Below, one piece after another: positions 14,750 to 28,541 of a stretch of DNA of 28,541 nucleotides (its first letter is position 1; each line of letters opens with the position of its first letter). Origin of the DNA: an uncultured Desulfurococcaceae archaeon (lineage in GTDB: Archaea; Thermoproteota; Thermoprotei_A; Sulfolobales; NBVN01). The notes beneath the pieces were generated by a model that saw nothing but the letters and a program-made list of their open reading frames with translations, was not told where the DNA came from and did no database searches. The DNA is taken from NCBI GenBank assembly GCA_964479035.1, contig CAYZJX010000001.1, positions 3,878-32,418 on the forward strand, in the 5' to 3' direction. The position numbers and the translations under genes were made by a program.

Positions 14750-16354
14750 ATGTACGCATCAATAGGATTCATAACACCGTTCCTCGTGGCCGTTGCGTTC
14801 TTCATTCCACTACTTACACTATTAACTAAAAAGAAGGCTATATTTGACTCTCTGATGATTACAGCAGCATTCATAGCTATGGTATTAACTTGGTATAATT
14901 ACTTTCTCGTAAAGTCCATTGGAGAGCCTATTGTATATACCTTTGGCGGCTGGCCGCCACCAATAGGTATTGTTTATGAGGTTGATGAGCTTTCAGCCGT
15001 TCTTGCAGTAGTAACCTCAACAATTATGTTTCTCGTAGGGCTCTACAGCATCTGGTACCTTAAGGGTACTAAAGGCTTTGAGTGGTTCTATACTCTTTAC
15101 TTGGGTCTTGAAGCAGGTATGGTAGGATGCATATACACTGGTGATGCATTCAACTTATTCGTTATGCTTGAAGTAATGTCTGTGTCAGCTTACGCCTTAG
15201 TTGCGTTCTATAGATCGTCTAAGGAAGCTGTAGAAGCCAGCATTAAGTACGCGATAATAGGTGCTGTTTCAACAACAATATACTTCATAGCGCTAATGTT
15301 TATTTACGGCGCATTCGGCACGCTTAACATGGCTGAATTAGCAGCAAGAGTCAGGTCGCTAACATCATATCCATTATTTACTGGTGGATTTTTGACACCA
15401 CCACCAGCAAATATTAGTCTCGCAGCAAGTATAGCACTAGCCCTCTCACTCTGGGCTTTCACATTTAAAGCAGCAGTTTTCCCGAATCACTTCTGGCTGC
15501 CGGACGCGCATCCAGCAGCTCCAACACCCGTCTCAGCAATTCTTTCGGGCTTAGTGGTTAATGTAGGTGCTTACGCCATCATAAGATTTTTCTACACTAT
15601 ACTTGGATGGGACTCGATGAAGTCCATATCATCAGCTGTTTCTTCAGCGGCAGCTATTCTAGTGGTTCTAGGTGGCGCTTCAGCATTAATTGCTTCAGCA
15701 TTAATGCTTGTTCAAAAAGATATTAAAAGGCTAATAGCATACAGTACAATACTGCACCTAGGGCTTATAGTATCAGCTGCAAGTCTGGGAACTAATACAG
15801 GACTTGCTGGGAGCATGTATCACATAGTAACACACGCAGTAGGTAAGGCACTGCTCTTCCTTACAGCAGGTGTTGTAATAAAGATGGTGGGTTCTAGGAG
15901 CATTGATGATATAGCTGGAGTTGCTAGGAGAGCACCGCTTACAATATTTGCTATGGTGGTTGCAGTATTTTCACTAGTTGGTATACCTCCATTCGGAGGC
16001 TTCTTCAGTAAATTAGTTCTTTACCAAGCATTCATTACCTCACCCCATGTATACATGGTTGCAGTACTCCTGATATCATCAGCTCTGGCACTACTGGCTT
16101 ACACTAAGATACTATATGTCGCATGGTTTAGGCATCCGATAAGGGAATTTAGAGTAGAGCGTGAGAGTCCATTATCTACTGCTACTTTAATTACTATGGC
16201 TTTAATTCTCGTACTTTTAGGAATACTATCACCTATAATTTATGATAGTGTATTCATGTCTGCAGCATACTCAGTCACTAACTATTTAAGCTACATTAAT
16301 TCAGCTCATAATGCACTTGCATCATATTTAACCTCACTGGTGGGAGGTGGGTGA
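14750..16354 (+). CDS. mbhH: MrpD/NuoN-like proton-conducting membrane subunit
   Basis: GGWPPP.GI, DAFNLFVMLEV, KAAVFP.HFWLPDAH, KRLIAYST, HAVGKALLF and G.PPFGGFFSK. Confidence 0.92.
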   Translation: MYASIGFITPFLVAVAFFIPLLTLLTKKKAIFDSLMITAAFIAMVLTWYNYFLVKSIGEPIVYTFGGWPPPIGIVYEVDELSAVLAVVTSTIMFLVGLYSIWYLKGTKGFEWFYTLYLGLEAGMVGCIYTGDAFNLFVMLEVMSVSAYALVAFYRSSKEAVEASIKYAIIGAVSTTIYFIALMFIYGAFGTLNMAELAARVRSLTSYPLFTGGFLTPPPANISLAASIALALSLWAFTFKAAVFPNHFWLPDAHPAAPTPVSAILSGLVVNVGAYAIIRFFYTILGWDSMKSISSAVSSAAAILVVLGGASALIASALMLVQKDIKRLIAYSTILHLGLIVSAASLGTNTGLAGSMYHIVTHAVGKALLFLTAGVVIKMVGSRSIDDIAGVARRAPLTIFAMVVAVFSLVGIPPFGGFFSKLVLYQAFITSPHVYMVAVLLISSALALLAYTKILYVAWFRHPIREFRVERESPLSTATLITMALILVLLGILSPIIYDSVFMSAAYSVTNYLSYINSAHNALASYLTSLVGGG

Positions 16355-16358
16355 AGGA

Positions 16359-16706
16359 ATGCAGGTGACATTAGACCCATTCACTCTCATGTTGGTCATA
16401 TCGTCAGGCCTTCTAATACTCGCATGCATACTTGTTATTGCGATGTACCTCGTTGTATCTAGAAAGGTTAGGGTAACGAGTGCTTACTTATGTGGTGAGG
16501 ACGAGAAAGACTTCAGTAAGTCATTATCTCCTGGTGGTTCACCAATGTACTGGGGGGCTACAGAGGTACTTAAAAAGTGCCTTAAGGTGTTGAGAGAAAG
16601 TATACACACAGGTTTTATAGATGATTGGTTTAGTCTTATGATACCCTTCATGATGGTACTTGTTATGGTAGCTGTTGCCGCATCTGTAATAATGAAGGGG
16701 GTGTAA
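16359..16706 (+). CDS. mbhI: MbhI-like small membrane subunit
   Basis: Two TM helices flank YLCGE...HTG..DDW. It sits between the MrpD-like and NuoH-like genes. The GTG at 16347 is an alternative start. Confidence 0.7.
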   Translation: MQVTLDPFTLMLVISSGLLILACILVIAMYLVVSRKVRVTSAYLCGEDEKDFSKSLSPGGSPMYWGATEVLKKCLKVLRESIHTGFIDDWFSLMIPFMMVLVMVAVAASVIMKGV

Positions 16707-16708
16707 AC

Positions 16709-17686
16709 ATGATGTCCAATCCGTTGCTAATAATATTTGAGGTGTTTGTGTTCCCTGGCTTCCTATTTCTATGTCTACTCGCACTAGTTAGTCAGTGGTT
16801 TAAGCGTAAGATAATAGCTAGGATGCAGAATAGAATGGGTCCTACTTACGTGGGTCCTATAGGTTTAGCGCAGCCATTTGCAGATGCATTAAAATTGTTT
16901 TTTGTTAAAGAGCTAGTCGTAAATAGAGGAATTTTATGGGCGGTAGCACTATTCGTAGCTACGCTTGGCATTTGTGCTATTTCAGCATCAACACTGCTCT
17001 TACCGATAGCTCCGGTACAGTTAGTCTCACCTTACGATGTCTTTGTATTGATTTACGTACTACTTTATGCTACCTTCGCGTTCATCCTAATAGGGCTAAT
17101 GTCATCAAATCCATTTAGTGCTATGGGATCATCGAGGTACATGGCAATGATAGCTATTGCGGAGCCTGCACTAGCGCTCTCACTGGTAGCTAGTGCTTTA
17201 GTCTATTATAATATACTTCCGCTATCAATAGGAGTTACATTAGCTGTTAGTCCGCCATCGCTGTATGATGCTATAGTAACCATATTTGTAGGTATCTCAC
17301 TTTTCATAATATTGCTAGCGAAGGGTATGTTAAAACCCTACGATATTCCTGAAGCTGAAACAGAAATAGCAGGAGGGTTTGCAGCTGAATTAAGCGGTCC
17401 ATTACTTGGTATGGTTATGTTACTGCATGATGCAGAAATATCATTCTTAACTCTCCTTTATACATTCCTAGTACTTAAGGGGCCATACCCCTTCACACTT
17501 GCAGATCCTGCTGGCTGGGTGGTGGTATTTGCTAAATACTTCTTCATACTGTTCATGGCATCAGCTATTGTTGCATCAGTTGGTAGATTAAGAATAGAGC
17601 AGGCACTAAGGCATCTGCTAAGATATAGCTTAGCACTATCAATAATCGCTTTCGTAATCGCACTTACTTTTAGATATTTAGCTTAA
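16709..17686 (+). CDS. mbhM: NuoH-like membrane anchor subunit
   Basis: RKIIARMQNRMGP, QPFADALKL and PYDIPEAETEI.GG...E.SG motifs. Confidence 0.93.
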   Translation: MMSNPLLIIFEVFVFPGFLFLCLLALVSQWFKRKIIARMQNRMGPTYVGPIGLAQPFADALKLFFVKELVVNRGILWAVALFVATLGICAISASTLLLPIAPVQLVSPYDVFVLIYVLLYATFAFILIGLMSSNPFSAMGSSRYMAMIAIAEPALALSLVASALVYYNILPLSIGVTLAVSPPSLYDAIVTIFVGISLFIILLAKGMLKPYDIPEAETEIAGGFAAELSGPLLGMVMLLHDAEISFLTLLYTFLVLKGPYPFTLADPAGWVVVFAKYFFILFMASAIVASVGRLRIEQALRHLLRYSLALSIIAFVIALTFRYLA

Positions 17687-18185: not shown

Positions 18186-18355
18186 TTCTTCTCACCGTAA
18201 TATCTAAGTATATAATATGAAGGTAAAAATCTTACTTGAAATATCAAGAACGTTAATAATTCAGCATATTTATTTGATCTTACTAATAACTTATTTGCTC
18301 CTTTACCTACCTGGTAAGTGAATGCTTACATCAAATAACACGTGAGGTGATACTC

Positions 18356-19567
18356 ATGAAGTATCTCATAAGAGCTAAAGCAGAAATCGATGGAATAGTA
18401 GATAAGTCAGATATAGTTGGGGCTATATTCGGTCAAACAGAAGGATTATTCAGCCCTGACTTTGACTTAAGGGAGCTTCAGGATAAGGGAAGAATAGGGA
18501 GGATTGTTGTTGACATTAAGCAGCAGGGAACTAGAACTATAGCTGAAGTACTAGTACCGTCAAACCTAGATAAAGCAGAGACAGCGCTTGTAGCTGCTAT
18601 GATAGAGTTTGTGGATAAGGTGGGTCCATACAGCGCTAAAATTAAGGTTATTGATATAATTGACGTTAGGTATGAAAAAATTAAAAAGATAACGGAGAGA
18701 GCTAAGGATATTCTGAAGAAGTGGTTTAGAGAGAAGACAATAGATGTCAGGGAGATAATTAATGAGATCGAGACTTCCATAAAAGCAGGAGAACTGGTAT
18801 ACTATGGACCTGACAGGCTACCTGCAGGTCCGGAAGTCGATACTTCTGACACGGTAGTAATTGTTGAAGGGAGAGCCGACGTCATTAACATGCTTAGGTA
18901 CGGATATAGAAATGTAGTTGCATTAGAAGGTGCTAGAGGCAGGATACCGGAAACTATAATTAATCTCTCTAAGCGGAAAAGAACAATAGTATTCTTAGAT
19001 GGTGACCATGCTGGTGACTTAATACTTAAGGAGTTACTTAGAGTAGCTAAAGTAGATTATATAACTAGGGCACCGCCAGGCAGGGAGGTCGAGGAATTAA
19101 CAGGAAGGGAAATAGCTAAGGCACTAAAGAATGCTATTCCAACAAAAACATACTTGCAGCAGCTAGCTAAGGAGGTACCTGAAGTCAAGGTAGAAGAACG
19201 CAGAATTTATGCTGAAGTCAAAAAAGAGACTAAGCCTATTACTGAGGTTACTGTAGCTGAAACAATTCAAGTGCCTGCTAACATCGTAGAGAGCATAAGG
19301 AATATGAGGGGTACGCTAGAAGCACTTATATACAATAGTAAGTGGGAACTACTAGATAAAGTTCCTGTCAGAGACTTAGTAGATTATTTGCTATCAACTG
19401 AGAAGAACGGCATTTATGCTATAATTATGGATGGCATAATAACGCAAAGAGTAGTTGATGCGGCTTCTGTTAAGGGAGTAAAGTTGATTATTGGAGCTAG
19501 AGTCGGTGTAATATCTAAGAGACCTGCAGATCTCACAATGCTAACGATGGACGACGTACTGCACTAA
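18356..19567 (+). CDS. dnaG: Archaeal DnaG-type primase (exosome-associated)
   Basis: DIVGAIFGQTEGL, LRELQDKGRIGRI, TOPRIM motifs VEGRADV and DGDHAG. ATG 18356 follows the GAGGTGA SD. Confidence 0.96.
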   Translation: MKYLIRAKAEIDGIVDKSDIVGAIFGQTEGLFSPDFDLRELQDKGRIGRIVVDIKQQGTRTIAEVLVPSNLDKAETALVAAMIEFVDKVGPYSAKIKVIDIIDVRYEKIKKITERAKDILKKWFREKTIDVREIINEIETSIKAGELVYYGPDRLPAGPEVDTSDTVVIVEGRADVINMLRYGYRNVVALEGARGRIPETIINLSKRKRTIVFLDGDHAGDLILKELLRVAKVDYITRAPPGREVEELTGREIAKALKNAIPTKTYLQQLAKEVPEVKVEERRIYAEVKKETKPITEVTVAETIQVPANIVESIRNMRGTLEALIYNSKWELLDKVPVRDLVDYLLSTEKNGIYAIIMDGIITQRVVDAASVKGVKLIIGARVGVISKRPADLTMLTMDDVLH

Positions 19568-19576
19568 CATAAAAAC

Positions 19577-21964
19577 CTACTTTTTACCTCCAAAGAAGTC
19601 AAGTAATGTTTTAGATGCTTTTCCAATTCCCTCTAACTGCTTTTCAGTTACACCAAAGTAACTGAGTATTCTAAGAGCTGCTGGAATTATCTGGTGCTTA
19701 ACGTAGTACTCAACATCGATATCCTTTGGTCTAACCATCATGTAGGGGTAGGCGCGTGCTGAGATCTTGCCCTGACCCTTGATGATTACATAGCCTATTT
19801 TGTCACCAACCTCAACCCTACCTCCTGCCTCAATAAGTCTTTTAGCTGCCATAACGTGAGGAGCATCTACCTCGTACTCACTTAATCTCCTAGTTATTGT
19901 TTTCCATATTATTAGCTTCTCTATAGATATTGCACCCTTCCTTAGTTCCCCAATTATCTTTCTTACATAATCTATCGCTTTTTCAACCTTGCCCTCCTTG
20001 AGAACTATCTTAGCAACATTCTCCTGCACCTCCTTGGCTAACTCGGTCCAGTCCCCCCTAACTGCTTCAAATCCAACTATATCTATTGATCCATCTATAG
20101 TAAGTCCAACATATCTCTTCTTAGCTTCAGTAAAGAACACCCTAACGTAAATCTTATCTACCTTAATCTCAAGTCCTAGCTCATCCATAACCTTCTTAAT
20201 GAATTCATTAATCTTCTTTTCATCGTAACTAACAAAGAGTGAGTCTGTATCGCCATAAATAACCTTAAGCCCGAGCGACTTAGCTATTCCTATCGCCTTC
20301 TTTATGGTCTCCCTGCCTAATGCTGTAACAGCTTCAGCACCTTCTCTAAAGTACCACCTAGCACCAACCCAACCCATATACCCATAGGAGGCATTGGCTA
20401 GTATCTTCAGTGCTTTCTGCCTTTCATCTAGTAGCCTGTATTCCGGTGAGTCCTTAGGAATCTTTTTCATTTCTTCTCTAATCTTCTTCCTGAGTCTCAG
20501 CAACATCTCTAAAACACTCTTATAGAAACCAGGTGGGTGTCTCCTAAATTTATAACCTAAGCCAGGTATAATGTGGCATTCTTTCTCACTGCACTTACTT
20601 TCAATGTACGTATCAGGACCTACATTGTATTTAATCATTAAGTTCGGGTACATTGAAGAGAAGTCGAGTACTGCAATATTTTCGTGCACACCTTTAATAG
20701 GTTCAAGGACTATAGCCCCTCTGTAGGGCTCGTAGGGCCTTTCAACTCTGTTAGGCACTAATTCGCCATATTTAAAGGCCTCTCTCATTAAGTACCACTC
20801 AAGTCTGAAACCTACTGAAGCAGCACCCACCTGATCAAGCGGCAGGCCTGTTAAGCTAGATAATTGAATGGCAAATGGCAGGAATTTTTCCGCTAAACCC
20901 ATGGTTGATACAACATCATCTTTAGCGTACTTCAGTAACTTATCCCTTCTCTTCTTATCGTCCCAGTAGAGATATATTTCATACCAAGGAATATTAGTTC
21001 TTTCGTTTTTCTTCATAACTCCTAAGTAGTCGGCCACTTCATCTAATGACTTAATCTTAACTTCAGGTATTTCTTCAGCGAAGTTATATAAATCAACATT
21101 TAGCCTTCCTGGCACAGATATGTGGCCATATACGGATGTCCTCGGTATACCCCCTTTAACCCTGCTGACATCTAGCTTTATTCCTAAGTAATTACTTCTC
21201 TGTAGTAGGTAGGGCCAGTCGAAACCATTGGAGTTATATCCTACTATTATATCTGGGTCGTACTCGATAACGTAATTAATGAATTCCTCAAGCATACGCT
21301 TGTCAGGTTTATTGAGGGAGTCCTCAGCAATAAATTGCTTAATTTCTCCTTCGGAATTCATTGTAGACACAATGATTACGGGATCTTTTTCAGGTCTTGG
21401 TGCACCTTTTGGATTATACACTTCTATGTCAAAAGCTAGTACCTTGAGTTTTGGTGGAAGTGCCCTATCTAAACGTCTGAAGCCACCAGCTACTCTGTAG
21501 ATTTTAGTAACTCTGTATTTAGGATTCGGGTATTCTTCCTCAGCTTCGACTTCATACCAGGTACAAGGACTTAAATCCTTATCAATAAGGTAACGCATTG
21601 CGAATCTAATGTCGGCCTCAAGGACTTCCTTAACTCCCCTCAAATGCTTAACCTCCTCTCTATACGTTCTTACATATTCTGGTATAACAGTCGTAACCTT
21701 AATTACCTTAACAGGCTTACCAAAATACTTTCTATCAACAACTTCTACATTAATAATAGGTGAAGCTGCTTTACTCAAACGCTTTATTTTACTTATTAAA
21801 TCATTAATATCAGCTTCATCAGGCATTACGTAGAAGTAAGGCCTGAAAGAATAGTCCTTTATTAGTATAGGCTCCCCCCTAGAGTTAACAGACCATAAGA
21901 GGATAATAGGATTCTTCGATGCCACTTCATAGCTGGCATCTAATAAGTAAAATTCAACCTTCAA
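19577..21964 (-). CDS. polB: Family B DNA polymerase (PolB3-like), intein-free
   Basis: Exonuclease motifs FDIE, YNSNGFD and YAKDD; polymerase motifs DFSSMYP, KILANASYGY and YGDTDS; KKRY. 795 aa. Confidence 0.96.
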   Translation of the reverse strand: MKVEFYLLDASYEVASKNPIILLWSVNSRGEPILIKDYSFRPYFYVMPDEADINDLISKIKRLSKAASPIINVEVVDRKYFGKPVKVIKVTTVIPEYVRTYREEVKHLRGVKEVLEADIRFAMRYLIDKDLSPCTWYEVEAEEEYPNPKYRVTKIYRVAGGFRRLDRALPPKLKVLAFDIEVYNPKGAPRPEKDPVIIVSTMNSEGEIKQFIAEDSLNKPDKRMLEEFINYVIEYDPDIIVGYNSNGFDWPYLLQRSNYLGIKLDVSRVKGGIPRTSVYGHISVPGRLNVDLYNFAEEIPEVKIKSLDEVADYLGVMKKNERTNIPWYEIYLYWDDKKRRDKLLKYAKDDVVSTMGLAEKFLPFAIQLSSLTGLPLDQVGAASVGFRLEWYLMREAFKYGELVPNRVERPYEPYRGAIVLEPIKGVHENIAVLDFSSMYPNLMIKYNVGPDTYIESKCSEKECHIIPGLGYKFRRHPPGFYKSVLEMLLRLRKKIREEMKKIPKDSPEYRLLDERQKALKILANASYGYMGWVGARWYFREGAEAVTALGRETIKKAIGIAKSLGLKVIYGDTDSLFVSYDEKKINEFIKKVMDELGLEIKVDKIYVRVFFTEAKKRYVGLTIDGSIDIVGFEAVRGDWTELAKEVQENVAKIVLKEGKVEKAIDYVRKIIGELRKGAISIEKLIIWKTITRRLSEYEVDAPHVMAAKRLIEAGGRVEVGDKIGYVIIKGQGKISARAYPYMMVRPKDIDVEYYVKHQIIPAALRILSYFGVTEKQLEGIGKASKTLLDFFGGKK

Positions 21965-25349: not shown

Positions 25350-26165
25350 TTGAGATTAGCTAGCTGGCGCTTAATACAGGAACTACTTGATATGTGTGAT
25401 GTAGCACTTGAGGTAGTTGATATTAGGGACCCGCTATCTACGAGGAGTAGAAGACTAGAGGCATTAGCTAGTAGGAAAGGTGTACCTATAGTCATAGTAT
25501 TAAATAAGGCTGACTTAGTACCAATTAGGGTTAGTGAAGCATGGAGGAGGTATTTTGAGGCTCGTGAAGGTGTTAGGACGGTCTATATTTCCGCTAGGAA
25601 GCGCTTAGGCACACGTGTACTTAGGAGAACAATAAAGGAAGTTATTAAGGGTAAGTTACCAATTACTGCAGGTGTCTTCGGAATTCCAAAAGTAGGTAAG
25701 TCAACTCTAATAAATACACTTAAGGGCAGGCGCTCAGCGGGCACATCCCCATACCCTGGAACGCCCGGATATACTAAGAAGTCACAACTATTTAAGATAG
25801 AGAGCAACATATATATGATTGATACACCTGGGCTGGTTCCACCAGATAGCAGGGACATAGAGTCCGTTATCAGGTCAAGACCTATTGATAAATTAGAAAA
25901 TCCTGTTGCAGTTGCACTAGAGTTAATTAAGAAAATACTTAAGTATAATCCGTACGCTTTCCTACAAGCTTACGATATTAAGTCCAGAAATCCTGGTGAT
26001 ATAATAGCAATGCTAGCTAGGAAGAGGGGCTGGGTGTATAGAAAAGATGGTGAACCAATACTTCATGAAGCAGCTAAGGCAATAATTAGGGACTACTTAG
26101 ATGGTAAGATTGTATTTTACGTTATGCCTCAACAACTTGAAGAATTTCATTTTGGCTCAACTTAA
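25350..26165 (+). CDS. Circularly permuted ribosome-biogenesis GTPase (RbgA/YlqF family)
   Basis: DIRDP, G4 NKAD placed before G1 GIPKVGKS, G2 PGYT, G3 DTPG, and a C-terminal AA..IIRDY..GK. Confidence 0.9.
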   Translation: MRLASWRLIQELLDMCDVALEVVDIRDPLSTRSRRLEALASRKGVPIVIVLNKADLVPIRVSEAWRRYFEAREGVRTVYISARKRLGTRVLRRTIKEVIKGKLPITAGVFGIPKVGKSTLINTLKGRRSAGTSPYPGTPGYTKKSQLFKIESNIYMIDTPGLVPPDSRDIESVIRSRPIDKLENPVAVALELIKKILKYNPYAFLQAYDIKSRNPGDIIAMLARKRGWVYRKDGEPILHEAAKAIIRDYLDGKIVFYVMPQQLEEFHFGST

Positions 26166-27399
26166 TAGCTCTAAAGTACTTGTAGCTGAGCCTTCTGAGG
26201 TCACTGTTCTCACCTATTATCATGACTGTTATCAATCTAGCTTCAACTGACTTAAGTTTCTTAGCAATAACTCTATCAGATACTCTATCCTCACCATCAG
26301 TAATGATTATTATGTCCGTAGGCCCCTTAACCACACCTTCAGATAAGTCATCGCATGCCGTTACTATGGCTCTAGTTATGTCGGTACCGCCGCCACCACG
26401 TACTCTAGCCAAGTACTTAATTAGGGTAATAATCATGTCGGGCTTCATCCTCTTAGGTACCTTAACTAAAGGATGTGGAAGCCCGTCAAAGAATCTCAAG
26501 TAGAAGTCTCTTCTTTCTCTTCTAGCCCTAAGAAACATTGCTATTGCTGTTGCTTTAGCCCACTTCATTTTCTCTCCTTCCATGCTACCTGACTTATCAA
26601 CAAGTACGTAGAACGGGCCGAACGACTTAGGCAGTACCTTATCATAAAGGAGTATCTTACCCTCTACTAACTTAACTCTAAAGTAGATTTTCGGTAGAAG
26701 AAGCTCGGTAGGGACTACACGCTCTACGTCAGAGCCCACTTCATAGCCTACGAATTCTCCCTTGCTTGACTTACTCACTTTTCTCTTAAACTTACGTGTT
26801 AAGTCTGGTATGAGGGAAATTATGTTCATTAGCTTTCTAACATCAGTATTCCTGGCTAATCTAATTACTTCGTCTCCACTTTCCTCTAAATCAAGTACTG
26901 TACCAGTTCCAGGCTGGGTGCCTTCGGAAATTAATCTTCTCATACTTTTTATTACACCTATATCTTCCTTAACATTCTTGACAGCCCTATCAACAATTTT
27001 ATTAATAATTTCTTCTTCAGTTAATTCGCCACCGCCCTCTCCTCCTCCAGCATACCTCATTTCATTCTGTAGTTCCTCACCAATATAATGAATAAGTGAA
27101 GCTGATATTACAGTGGCAGTAAAGCTATCCGCTATTGTATGTACTTTAACTTTCCTAACTTCAGGATTATCAATTAAGCTCTTAATAATTGCATAATTCA
27201 TCTCCTGACCCACAGGTGTTTGCTCTCTCGGGACAAGTATAGGTACGGGTAGGTAGAGAGTGTAGAAGACATCTATTGATAAATTAATATCTGCGTACTT
27301 AGCTTCGCTACCTATTTTCTTAGCTAATCTTATGATTCTCTCGGCTCTATACCTAACGACAGGATCTTCATATTTAACACCCTTAAGAACTCCGGGCAT
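26122..27399 (-). CDS. VWA-domain protein (ViaA-like partner of the MoxR ATPase)
   Basis: MIDAS motifs DKSGSM, GGGTD and ITDGED. ATG 27399 follows a GGGTGAG SD; the upstream GTG at 27405 overlaps the ATPase stop. Confidence 0.85.
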   Translation of the reverse strand: MPGVLKGVKYEDPVVRYRAERIIRLAKKIGSEAKYADINLSIDVFYTLYLPVPILVPREQTPVGQEMNYAIIKSLIDNPEVRKVKVHTIADSFTATVISASLIHYIGEELQNEMRYAGGGEGGGELTEEEIINKIVDRAVKNVKEDIGVIKSMRRLISEGTQPGTGTVLDLEESGDEVIRLARNTDVRKLMNIISLIPDLTRKFKRKVSKSSKGEFVGYEVGSDVERVVPTELLLPKIYFRVKLVEGKILLYDKVLPKSFGPFYVLVDKSGSMEGEKMKWAKATAIAMFLRARRERRDFYLRFFDGLPHPLVKVPKRMKPDMIITLIKYLARVRGGGGTDITRAIVTACDDLSEGVVKGPTDIIIITDGEDRVSDRVIAKKLKSVEARLITVMIIGENSDLRRLSYKYFRAIKLSQNEILQVVEA

Positions 27400-27401
27400 G
27401 C

Positions 27402-28541
27402 TCACCCTAGCCTCTTCTTTATGCTTTCTATAGCTGTGTTGATTAAATCTAGTACATCATTAGCTACTCGCTCAACTTTAGAGTCATTAGCCTCTAAGAT
27501 TATTCCGAGAACCCTCTCTTTCGTAACATCTAAGTCTCTAAGCATTTGTCTGAACCTCATTTCAATAAACTTAGACTCGATGCCCTGGAGTGAGTTAATG
27601 TAGTTTATTACTTCCTTGATATTAGTCTTAATCTCCTCCAGCTCTCTAATGTAGCGGTATGGGGTCTTCAACTCCTCTGAAAGTATTGTTATAACTTTAT
27701 CAAGTTCATCCCAATCTCTTGGCACAACGTACTTCAGCACGGTTAAATCAGTCTCTTCTGCATGGTTCCTACCATCAATTACCGCATTAGCTGCTATGAG
27801 TTTTAGTGCCTTACTTTTCCTTCTGTCAGTTACGTGTATTCCTCTACCTTCAAAAATCGCAAATAACTTAACCAGTTTAGTCTTAATGGGCTCTAAGTTA
27901 ACGGATAGTACAGCTTCATGAAACTTTCTCAGATCACTCATATCAAGCAGTTTTCTGCCACCTAAGTTACCCTTAAAGTACAGCATACGCTCGATTTCCC
28001 AAGCCTTGCTGAGAAGATCCCTCCAGAGATCCTCCGGAATAGGCTTAACAAAGTGTCTGACGACAAATCTATCGTAGAAAGCTTCTATCTCGGGCTCGTC
28101 AGGAATCTCATTACTTGCGCCAAACAGAGACCACAACGGAACACATAATTCTGTATAGCCGTCATACAGTATTCTTTCCTGAAGCAGGGTATTTAACGCA
28201 TTAAGTATGGCTGAATTAGCCTTAAATATTTCATCTAAGAAGGCTATTTCAGCCTCCGGCAACTTACCGCCAGTTAGTCTGACATATCTACCTTCCTCAA
28301 GAGCCTTAATATCAAGTGGTCCGAAGAGCTCAGCAGGTTCAGTAAACCTCGTTAATAAGTACTTAAAGAACTTAGCATTAAGTAACTCAGCAGCCCTCCT
28401 AACAATAGCAGACTTAGCCGTATTATGGGAAAGAAGACCATTAGAGAAGAATGAGTGGGTTTCAGGTACGTGAAAATCGTATACCCTAACCCACTCATGA
28501 ATGTATTTTATGTTGCTAACTGCATCATATAGTATATTACT
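27402..28541 (-). CDS. MoxR/RavA-family AAA+ ATPase, 5'-truncated, interrupted by an intein in Walker A
   Basis: The frame is open to the window end: ...SHN|TAKSAIVRR..., then LLTRFTEPAELFGP, Walker B FLDEIFKANSAIL, ASNE.P, DRF..R and TDRR. Confidence 0.9.
   Translation of the reverse strand, partial: SNILYDAVSNIKYIHEWVRVYDFHVPETHSFFSNGLLSHNTAKSAIVRRAAELLNAKFFKYLLTRFTEPAELFGPLDIKALEEGRYVRLTGGKLPEAEIAFLDEIFKANSAILNALNTLLQERILYDGYTELCVPLWSLFGASNEIPDEPEIEAFYDRFVVRHFVKPIPEDLWRDLLSKAWEIERMLYFKGNLGGRKLLDMSDLRKFHEAVLSVNLEPIKTKLVKLFAIFEGRGIHVTDRRKSKALKLIAANAVIDGRNHAEETDLTVLKYVVPRDWDELDKVITILSEELKTPYRYIRELEEIKTNIKEVINYINSLQGIESKFIEMRFRQMLRDLDVTKERVLGIILEANDSKVERVANDVLDLINTAIESIKKRLG
28422..28541 (-). 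mobile_element. Intein, C-terminal 40 aa (blocks F/G)
   Basis: SNILYDAVSNIKYIHEWVRVYDFHVPETHSFFSNGLLSHN is followed by Thr as the +1 nucleophile of the TAKS Walker A remainder. It shows the block F pattern VYD..V...H.F..NG and the terminal His-Asn. Confidence 0.93.

Follow-up and report, generated by a model that had tools for sequence, protein, structure and literature searches.

A class-1 intein in the Walker A motif of an archaeal MoxR-family ATPase: junction, relatives and distribution

What is to be made of an AAA+ ATPase gene that opens, in the middle of its nucleotide-binding loop, with what looks like the tail of an intein? The question is raised by the end of a 28,541-nucleotide stretch of DNA from an uncultured Desulfurococcaceae archaeon (below, the window, meaning the whole stretch analysed), where a gene for a MoxR-type ATPase on the minus strand runs into the end of its contig. 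There are four possible readings. The intein-like stretch could be the visible end of a complete, splicing intein whose endonuclease carries it between genomes; it could belong to an intein that still splices but has lost its endonuclease activity; the intein could have been co-opted as a switch acting on the ATPase; or the stretch could be a remnant or an assembly artefact. The observation itself and the junction are confirmed: the window ends in a real class-1 intein that splits the Walker A motif of a MoxR ATPase.

The junction and the missing upstream half

Direct translation of positions 27402..28541 (minus strand) yields a frame without a stop codon up to the final base of the window, where contig G000:C1 ends as well (G000 being the genome of the window). 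An earlier note on this DNA had stated that the frame stays open to the window end, despite an open reading frame (ORF) track that starts the gene at 28262, and this proved correct. Position 28262 falls on a TTG inside the gene, the codon of Leu94 in the visible protein, and since the start-codon rule picks this internal codon, the start call is an artefact.

The first 40 residues of the visible protein (SNILYDAVSNIKYIHEWVRVYDFHVPETHSFFSNGLLSHN; 28422..28541, minus strand) are the C-terminus of an intein and comprise blocks F and G (VYDFHVPETHSFF ... NGLLSHN, with the penultimate His and the terminal Asn). With 29.9 bits, the TIGR01443 model of intein C-termini clears its cutoff of 15.6, and its alignment stops at the junction; profile positions 117-155 of 155 in the Pfam Intein_splicing family (PF14890) align with residues 2-40. 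The C-extein, TAKSAIVRRAAELL, starts straight after these residues, with TAKSAIVRR abutting the junction. Thus the end of the element has the class-1 form, ...VYDFHVPETHSFFSNGLLSHN↓T (the arrow marks the splice point), where blocks F and G close in His-Asn and are followed by a Thr at position +1.

The Thr codon occupies 28419-28421 and the TAKS tetrapeptide 28410..28421 (minus strand). By direct reading, and by comparison with empty alleles that read GEPGTAKS, TAKS is the second half of Walker A, in which Thr is the +1 nucleophile and Lys and Ser are the phosphate and magnesium ligands. The splice junction therefore sits between Gly and Thr in GEPG↓TAKS, and not behind the Walker A Lys. The C-extein (339 residues; 27405..28421, minus strand; PF20030, AAA_5 and AAA_lid_8) contains the MoxR AAA+ core, the AAA lid and a helical C-terminal region, with the Walker B motif FLDE at 28230-28241 and the stop codon at 27402-27404, both on the minus strand. 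The MoxR profiles enter the visible protein late, PF20030 at position 41 (E-value 1.1e-51) and the RavA model NF010054 at position 50, and the window therefore lacks the N-terminus along with the first half of the P-loop. The claim of the earlier note that an intein lies in Walker A of a MoxR-type AAA+ ATPase, immediately before the Thr of TAKS, is thus borne out by the junction, TIGR01443 and PF20030.

The contig breaks 120 nucleotides into the intein, and 357 intein residues and a 45-residue N-extein are absent from the assembly. No N-extein or intein N-terminus was found in the other 214 contigs of the genome, the assembly being 84 % complete. A tblastn search of the same genome with the N-terminal 451 residues of a congener's protein returned only the window's own 40 residues and distant inteins; two candidates for the missing part were rejected, C122:18-161 being an ABC-transporter ATPase and C91:119-193 an unrelated intein in an Lhr helicase.

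The missing half is seen in other sequences. The final 379 residues of P0001, a 781-residue protein from a 13-kb contig of a Joint Genome Institute (JGI) metagenome, are 100 % identical to the window's protein, the 40 intein residues of the window being residues 403-442 of P0001, and the cluster of P0001 holds seven further members. As an account of this match, chance resemblance would be far too weak, since the 379 residues are the exact C-terminal end of the 781-residue protein. P0001 is composed of a 45-residue N-extein (...EHTVFIGEPG), a 397-residue intein (CLTGDAIV...NGLLSHN) and the 339-residue C-extein (TAKS...). In the intein, Pfam recognizes LAGLIDADG_3 (PF14528, 1.6e-19) and Intein_splicing (4e-16), and in the extein, bpMoxR, AAA_5 and AAA_lid_8. 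Two congeners, G004 and G002, have uninterrupted stop-to-stop frames of 790 residues, 94-95 % identical to the window's protein. Block A with Cys1 (CLTGDA) and block B (TPNH) occur in P0001 and the congeners, and not within the window; hence the upstream parts whose absence, according to the earlier note, would have argued against an intein (block A and an N-extein) do exist in these relatives, as ...FIGEPG, CLTGDA and TPNH together with two LAGLIDADG motifs.

These sequences also bear on the possibility of a remnant, of a free Hint fragment or of a chimera formed at the contig end, with a broken ATPase gene. The position of the contig break and the failure to find the N-terminal part in the assembly would fit such a reading. 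However, the visible residues form the end of an intact protein with seven further cluster members, the two congeners have uninterrupted frames, and in G019 and G013 the gene is split inside the intein over two contigs with both halves present, which points to a recurrent assembly problem and not to a biological truncation. We consider a remnant or chimera extremely improbable.

The assembly breaks in or beside the same intein in four independent metagenome-assembled genomes (MAGs): at window position 28541, at G019:C24/C54, at G013:C59/C77 and at G234:C171/C112. Co-occurring intein variants, or occupied and empty alleles within the samples, are a plausible cause of these breaks.

The host ATPase and splicing

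Against Pfam, the C-extein matches PF20030 bpMoxR (1.1e-51, 175 bits, cutoff 27), AAA_5 (7.6e-22, 78 bits, cutoff 22) and AAA_lid_8 (3.9e-9). The RavA equivalog model NF010054 gives 145.8 bits against a cutoff of 681, with profile positions 50-297 of 498 aligned. Judged by the curated thresholds, the host is a MoxR-family AAA+ ATPase with a VWA neighbour. From the MoxR/RavA label of the earlier note the MoxR part thus stands, whereas identity with a RavA orthologue is rejected, the protein being RavA-like in its ATPase module only.

The gene of the VWA-domain partner (ViaA-like; 26122..27405, minus strand) matches VWA_2, VWA and VWA_CoxE at 1e-7 to 2e-6, with a weak ViaA match at 8e-8, and there is a 4-nucleotide overlap between its longest ORF and the ATPase stop codon. 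In 78 of 80 named loci, MoxR is immediately followed by a VWA homologue, irrespective of occupancy. On the 3' side of the VWA gene there is a convergent GTPase gene of the MMR_HSR1/RsgA type (25350-26165) and no beta-propeller gene, which would be the third member of a bpMoxR ternary system; the side upstream of MoxR is off the contig. The 3' ends of the VWA gene (minus strand) and of the convergent GTPase gene overlap by 44 nucleotides (26122-26165).

Fourteen alleles that share only 52-75 % overall identity all have Cys1, the T..NH of block B, the Asp of block F (VYDF), the terminal SHN and Thr+1, and these splicing residues recur in each of the 59 inteins aligned for the tree considered below. 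The exteins are equally conserved in occupied and empty alleles. Because the exteins and the MoxR-VWA pair are conserved regardless of occupancy, the host gene is presumably under selection, and therefore the intein would have to splice. Strong extein conservation in the occupied alleles hence supports the view that it must be splicing-competent.

The gene would be translated as a precursor of about 781 residues with its P-loop split by the intein, and, given the established role of Walker A, this precursor should be unable to bind nucleotide normally. The invariant residues and established intein chemistry suggest the following course of splicing: an N-S acyl shift at Cys1, transesterification to Thr+1, cyclisation of Asn aided by the penultimate His, and an O-N shift. 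Splicing would free the intein and join GEPG to TAKS, yielding a 384-residue ATPase with the architecture of its intein-free orthologues.

A structure was predicted with AlphaFold for the intein of a congener (95 % identical) from a 13-sequence alignment and compared using Foldseek. The model (predicted local distance difference test, pLDDT, 86.5; predicted template modelling score, pTM, 0.88) has its best Protein Data Bank (PDB) matches among the endonuclease-bearing inteins TliVMA (E-value 1.5e-26, TM-score 0.68-0.73), PhoVMA, PI-PfuI (6e-18), PI-PkoII and PI-SceI (9e-13), and its middle, endonuclease, domain matches I-DmoI (1e-6). A sequence search of the PDB agrees with these matches. In the model, an endonuclease fold is nested within the Hint domain. 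TliVMA and PhoVMA (PDB 7qss, 7qsu, 7qst; PMC8966425) and PI-PfuI (1dq3) share this architecture, a Hint domain with a nested two-motif LAGLIDADG endonuclease, but they are 17-24 % identical to the intein studied here and reside in other hosts, the V-ATPase A subunit and ribonucleotide reductase. In the Tli/Pho VMA pair, one archaeal allele exists with an active and with an inactive endonuclease, and the two forms have been compared structurally (PMC8966425).

Distribution, endonuclease state and transfer

Occupancy was surveyed by a search with the intein alone across the genomes of the GTDB order containing the window (325 genomes; by source names, Desulfurococcales/'Sulfolobales' MAGs, Zestosphaera belonging to the same family). 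A MoxR orthologue is present in 296 of the 325 genomes, and the intein in 25 of these 296, patchily distributed over nine genera. The element occurs in 3/3 genomes of genus g1, 2/2 of g5, 5/5 of g7 and 10/10 of g11; g10 (1/3) and g9 (1/6) are polymorphic, and single occupied genomes occur in two other families (G086 in f8; G136 and G141 in f10).

The 80 named loci include 15 occupied and 59 empty ones. As expected for a class-1 intein, occupied alleles are built as GEPG↓intein↓TAKS, while intein-free orthologues read through as GEPGTAKS (55 of the 59 empty alleles); the closest empty allele, L048, differs in 3 of 42 nucleotides from the reconstituted site of a congener. The four remaining empty alleles (L049, L054, L055 and L057, from named Desulfurococcales MAGs of genera g3 and g4) read GEPGVAKS. 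Since Val lacks the +1 nucleophile, these sites could not host a functional intein, and they may represent 'immune' alleles.

All 25 occupied genomes are multi-contig assemblies, and the closed single-contig genomes with the orthologue are all empty. The possibly allelic inteins in AAA proteins of Aeropyrum and Staphylothermus mentioned in the earlier note thus found no support, and the literature search gave no match for APE0745 or Smar 1471. The InBase entries in question may belong to VirB11/KlbA-type ATPases.

At the DNA level, the endonuclease would be expected to cut the codons of an intein-free GEPG/TAKS site, and the repair would copy the intein in. Both acidic residues are present in the LAGLIDADG motifs of P0001, LAELLGAFVAEG and FLRGLFEGDA. 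Among the 32 MoxR inteins, however, only five (P0001, P0002, P0003, P0005 and P0006) keep both catalytic acids (E of ..AEG and D of ..EGD.); P0004 has lost one of them, and 26 have lost both, typically by Glu-to-Arg replacement. Thus, by these catalytic residues, most other MoxR inteins look immobilised, whereas the form found in the window looks still competent to move.

In P0003-P0006 the intein is closer to that of the window than is the extein (intein/extein identity 81/71, 79/70, 66/56 and 64/49 %, respectively), and the same holds across families (66/57 % in G136, 60/52 % in G086). Conversely, in the decayed alleles the extein is closer than the intein (e.g. intein/extein 49/76 %). The C-extein of P0003 is 96.5 % identical to the empty alleles of G012 and G022, and in the extein tree, which requires at least nine changes of occupancy, P0003 and P0004 are placed amid empty alleles with almost no divergence. 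The approximately unbiased (AU) test on the extein data rejects a clade of P0001-P0004 (difference in log-likelihood 85, p = 7e-6), while the intein tree supports this clade at 100/99.

The incongruence of intein and extein, evident from the identities, the AU test and the census, implies lateral movement of the element. On these comparisons the sublineage of the window has demonstrably moved between genera and families, and its subgroup was probably transferred fairly recently. The suggestion of the earlier note that this may be a mobile homing element thus gains support from the survey of occupied and empty sites and from the incongruence.

Several points weigh against a full-length, still-moving element in this organism. 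The genome of the window itself contains just the last 40 residues of the intein, so that for this organism the N-terminal 402 residues are taken from P0001 and from congeners that are 94-95 % identical. The final Gly of the second motif is replaced by Ala in P0001 and P0002, and EGDA in place of EGDG might weaken the endonuclease. All three gene-bearing genomes of the window's genus are occupied, with no empty target seen there now. Finally, the comparisons point to lateral transfer at the evolutionary time scale and not to present activity.

Some of these points would suit a splicing-competent intein with an inactive endonuclease, i.e. a fixed, vertically inherited passenger late in the homing cycle: fixation predicts the full occupancy of the genus, the EGDA variant is found in the very lineage of the window, and the loss of one or both acids is the rule among the MoxR inteins. 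On the other hand, both catalytic residues are intact in the window's lineage, the nearest relatives of its intein have hosts with exteins that either diverge far more or group with empty alleles, and together with the AU test this shows transfers inside the sublineage after the genera had split. A passenger with a dead endonuclease is therefore rather unlikely, while deserving to be kept in mind.

The P-loop position guarantees an inactive precursor, and one could imagine that the intein has been co-opted as a temperature, redox or metal switch that holds the MoxR chaperone off until splicing occurs; conditional splicing of other archaeal P-loop inteins, e.g. that in RadA of Pyrococcus horikoshii, is documented (PMC4513877, PMC5790916). 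The conditional switch put forward in the earlier note nevertheless found no backing here. Cys1 is the sole invariant Cys, a search for a second conserved Cys in the intein returned none, and the N-extein Cys at position -9 is confined to some other clades, so that there is no conserved disulfide partner. Moreover, most relatives do without the intein: 271 of the 296 genomes run the MoxR-VWA module intein-free, including close relatives in the same genera. The distribution and the pattern of endonuclease decay fit a selfish element, and a co-opted switch seems improbable.

The reading that best accounts for the locus, and that we hold to be very probable, is a 397-residue class-1 LAGLIDADG intein inserted at GEPG↓TAKS, a splicing element that belongs to a selfish homing sublineage.

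Related P-loop inteins and the possible source of the MoxR allele

When the intein alone was used as the query beyond MoxR, the nearest relatives (40-45 % full-length identity) came from other archaeal phyla and sat in CDC48-type AAA+ proteins and in a single Lon-like ATPase; more distant ones were found in RadA and MCM. All these inteins occupy the same P-loop position, which can be written as G-x-x-G↓[T/S]-[G/A]-K-[S/T]. In a maximum-likelihood tree of 59 aligned inteins, including the 32 from MoxR, the MoxR inteins form one clade (100/100), with the CDC48 and Lon-like inteins (98/93) as the sister clade; the join of the two is moderately supported (80/63). This suggests a single entry of the intein into MoxR.

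The P-loop inteins of CDC48/VCP (P0017-P0054) match the MoxR inteins in size (356-380 residues) and share with them blocks A, B, F and G as well as the LAGLIDADG domain, and the insertion points are homologous (GPPG↓TGKT against GEPG↓TAKS). They differ in their hosts, classical CDC48 proteins and one Lon-like ATPase of, by source names, Aenigmarchaeota and Thaumarchaeota, and in the state of the endonuclease: every one of the 21 CDC48-borne inteins, like the Lon-like one, retains both catalytic acids, while the majority of the MoxR inteins do not. Among inteins of this host, InBase lists an allele 'Mka CDC48'.

The inteins of MCM (CDC21) site a and of RadA likewise interrupt Walker A at the same position (GDPG↓TAKS in MCM P0065, GEFG↓SGKS in RadA P0058-61), are of class 1, end in SHN, and are 28-32 % identical to the MoxR intein. 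They branch, however, outside the MoxR and CDC48 clade, and their hosts act in replication and recombination, unlike the chaperone-type MoxR. An origin from the closely similar MCM site was rejected, as the MCM intein P0065 is about 28 % identical and falls outside that clade. Archaeal P-loop inteins of MCM and RadA have been described before (Novikova et al. 2016, PMC4760082; the structure of PhoCDC21-1, PMC6801210; the Pho RadA intein, PMC4513877), and the P-loop is a documented hot spot of insertion, with MCM site a, DnaB site b, RFC-S site a, LonB, RadA and 'many other examples' (PMC4760082).

In Anaeramoeba, related inteins were found in Walker A of different, even non-homologous proteins, which was read as homing to similar P-loops, and the same paper mentions inteins of CDC48 whose sites are orthologous to those in prokaryotes (Gallot-Lavallee et al. 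2023, PMC10710043). The series MoxR, CDC48, Lon-like ATPase, RadA and MCM shows the same inter-P-loop pattern. The difference is that Anaeramoeba is a eukaryote in which the spread is intragenomic, while here the related inteins reside in different archaeal phyla.

A search for ectopic copies in the window's genome found all 37 of the 37 uninterrupted P-loops of the form G-x-x-G-[TSC]-[GA]-K-[ST] empty (ORFs of at least 150 residues). Among them are a near-cognate site in a KaiC-like gene, GEPGTGKS, with 20 of 24 nucleotides matching, and five GPPGCGKT sites of CDC48-like AAA+ proteins (G000:C10:246, C36:2893, C65:5100, C96:2704 and C2:9671), where the Cys is a possible +1 residue and all are unoccupied.

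Tentatively, the sublineage of the window (P0001, P0002, P0003, P0005 and P0006) may be the still-active 'founder' of the one MoxR entry from the CDC48/Lon pool of other archaeal phyla, now sweeping through hyperthermophilic Desulfurococcales across genera and families, while older copies decay by a recurrent change of E to R; we would put this a little short of an even chance.

The genome of the window contains at least six inteins in total. Thus, this genome does not bear out the remark of the earlier note on a scarcity of inteins in crenarchaea, as at least five more are found: in RFC-S, in a VirB11/FlaI-type ATPase (two), in a KaiC-like ATPase and in Lhr. All of them lie outside the window. 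The RFC small subunit (791-residue frame; G000:C2:~15792-17309, minus strand) carries a full-size LAGLIDADG intein (ELNA↓S...LLHN↓SDERG) with both catalytic acids, located downstream of an intact GPPGTGKT P-loop. A secretion ATPase of the VirB11/FlaI type (G000:C156:1-~1700, plus strand) has two adjacent inteins (...LLLHN↓TGHGGL↓CLPGDQ...LTHN↓TTMHAE), the first of which is truncated where the contig begins. A KaiC/RadA-like ATPase contains a mini-intein (...LVHN↓STFGFG; G000:C10:~15700-16900, minus strand), and the intein of the Lhr helicase (LRAVV↓CVSPDT...; G000:C91:1-193, minus strand) is cut by the contig end. Family B DNA polymerase is a frequent host of inteins in archaea; the one encoded in the window (19577-21964, minus strand; 795 residues) is intein-free and adjoins a gene with a Toprim domain (primase-like; 18347-19567, plus strand).

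The literature search found no paper naming an archaeal MoxR as an intein host, and in public annotation these genes are just an 'AAA family ATPase' or a 'LAGLIDADG family homing endonuclease'. The locus is an ordinary case of a well-known habit of inteins, with no new mechanism, and MoxR is a new host for an intein of a well-known kind; the case is notable only for a lineage that looks still mobile amid endonuclease decay. In practical terms, recognising the intein yields the correct 384-residue product of a gene whose start ORF callers place on an internal Leu codon. The list of P-loop hosts is extended by a chaperone-type MoxR ATPase, outside the usual replication and repair set, and the MoxR allele is linked to P-loop inteins that reside in CDC48 and Lon proteins of other phyla. 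A single family with occupied, empty, polymorphic, endonuclease-intact and endonuclease-dead alleles is useful for the study of the homing cycle in hyperthermophiles. If the sublineage of the window is indeed the founder, then all stages of the homing cycle (empty, freshly invaded, fixed and dead, and Val+1 'immune') would stand side by side in one allele family, and homing dynamics, as well as hopping between target sites, could be measured at high temperature in a natural system.

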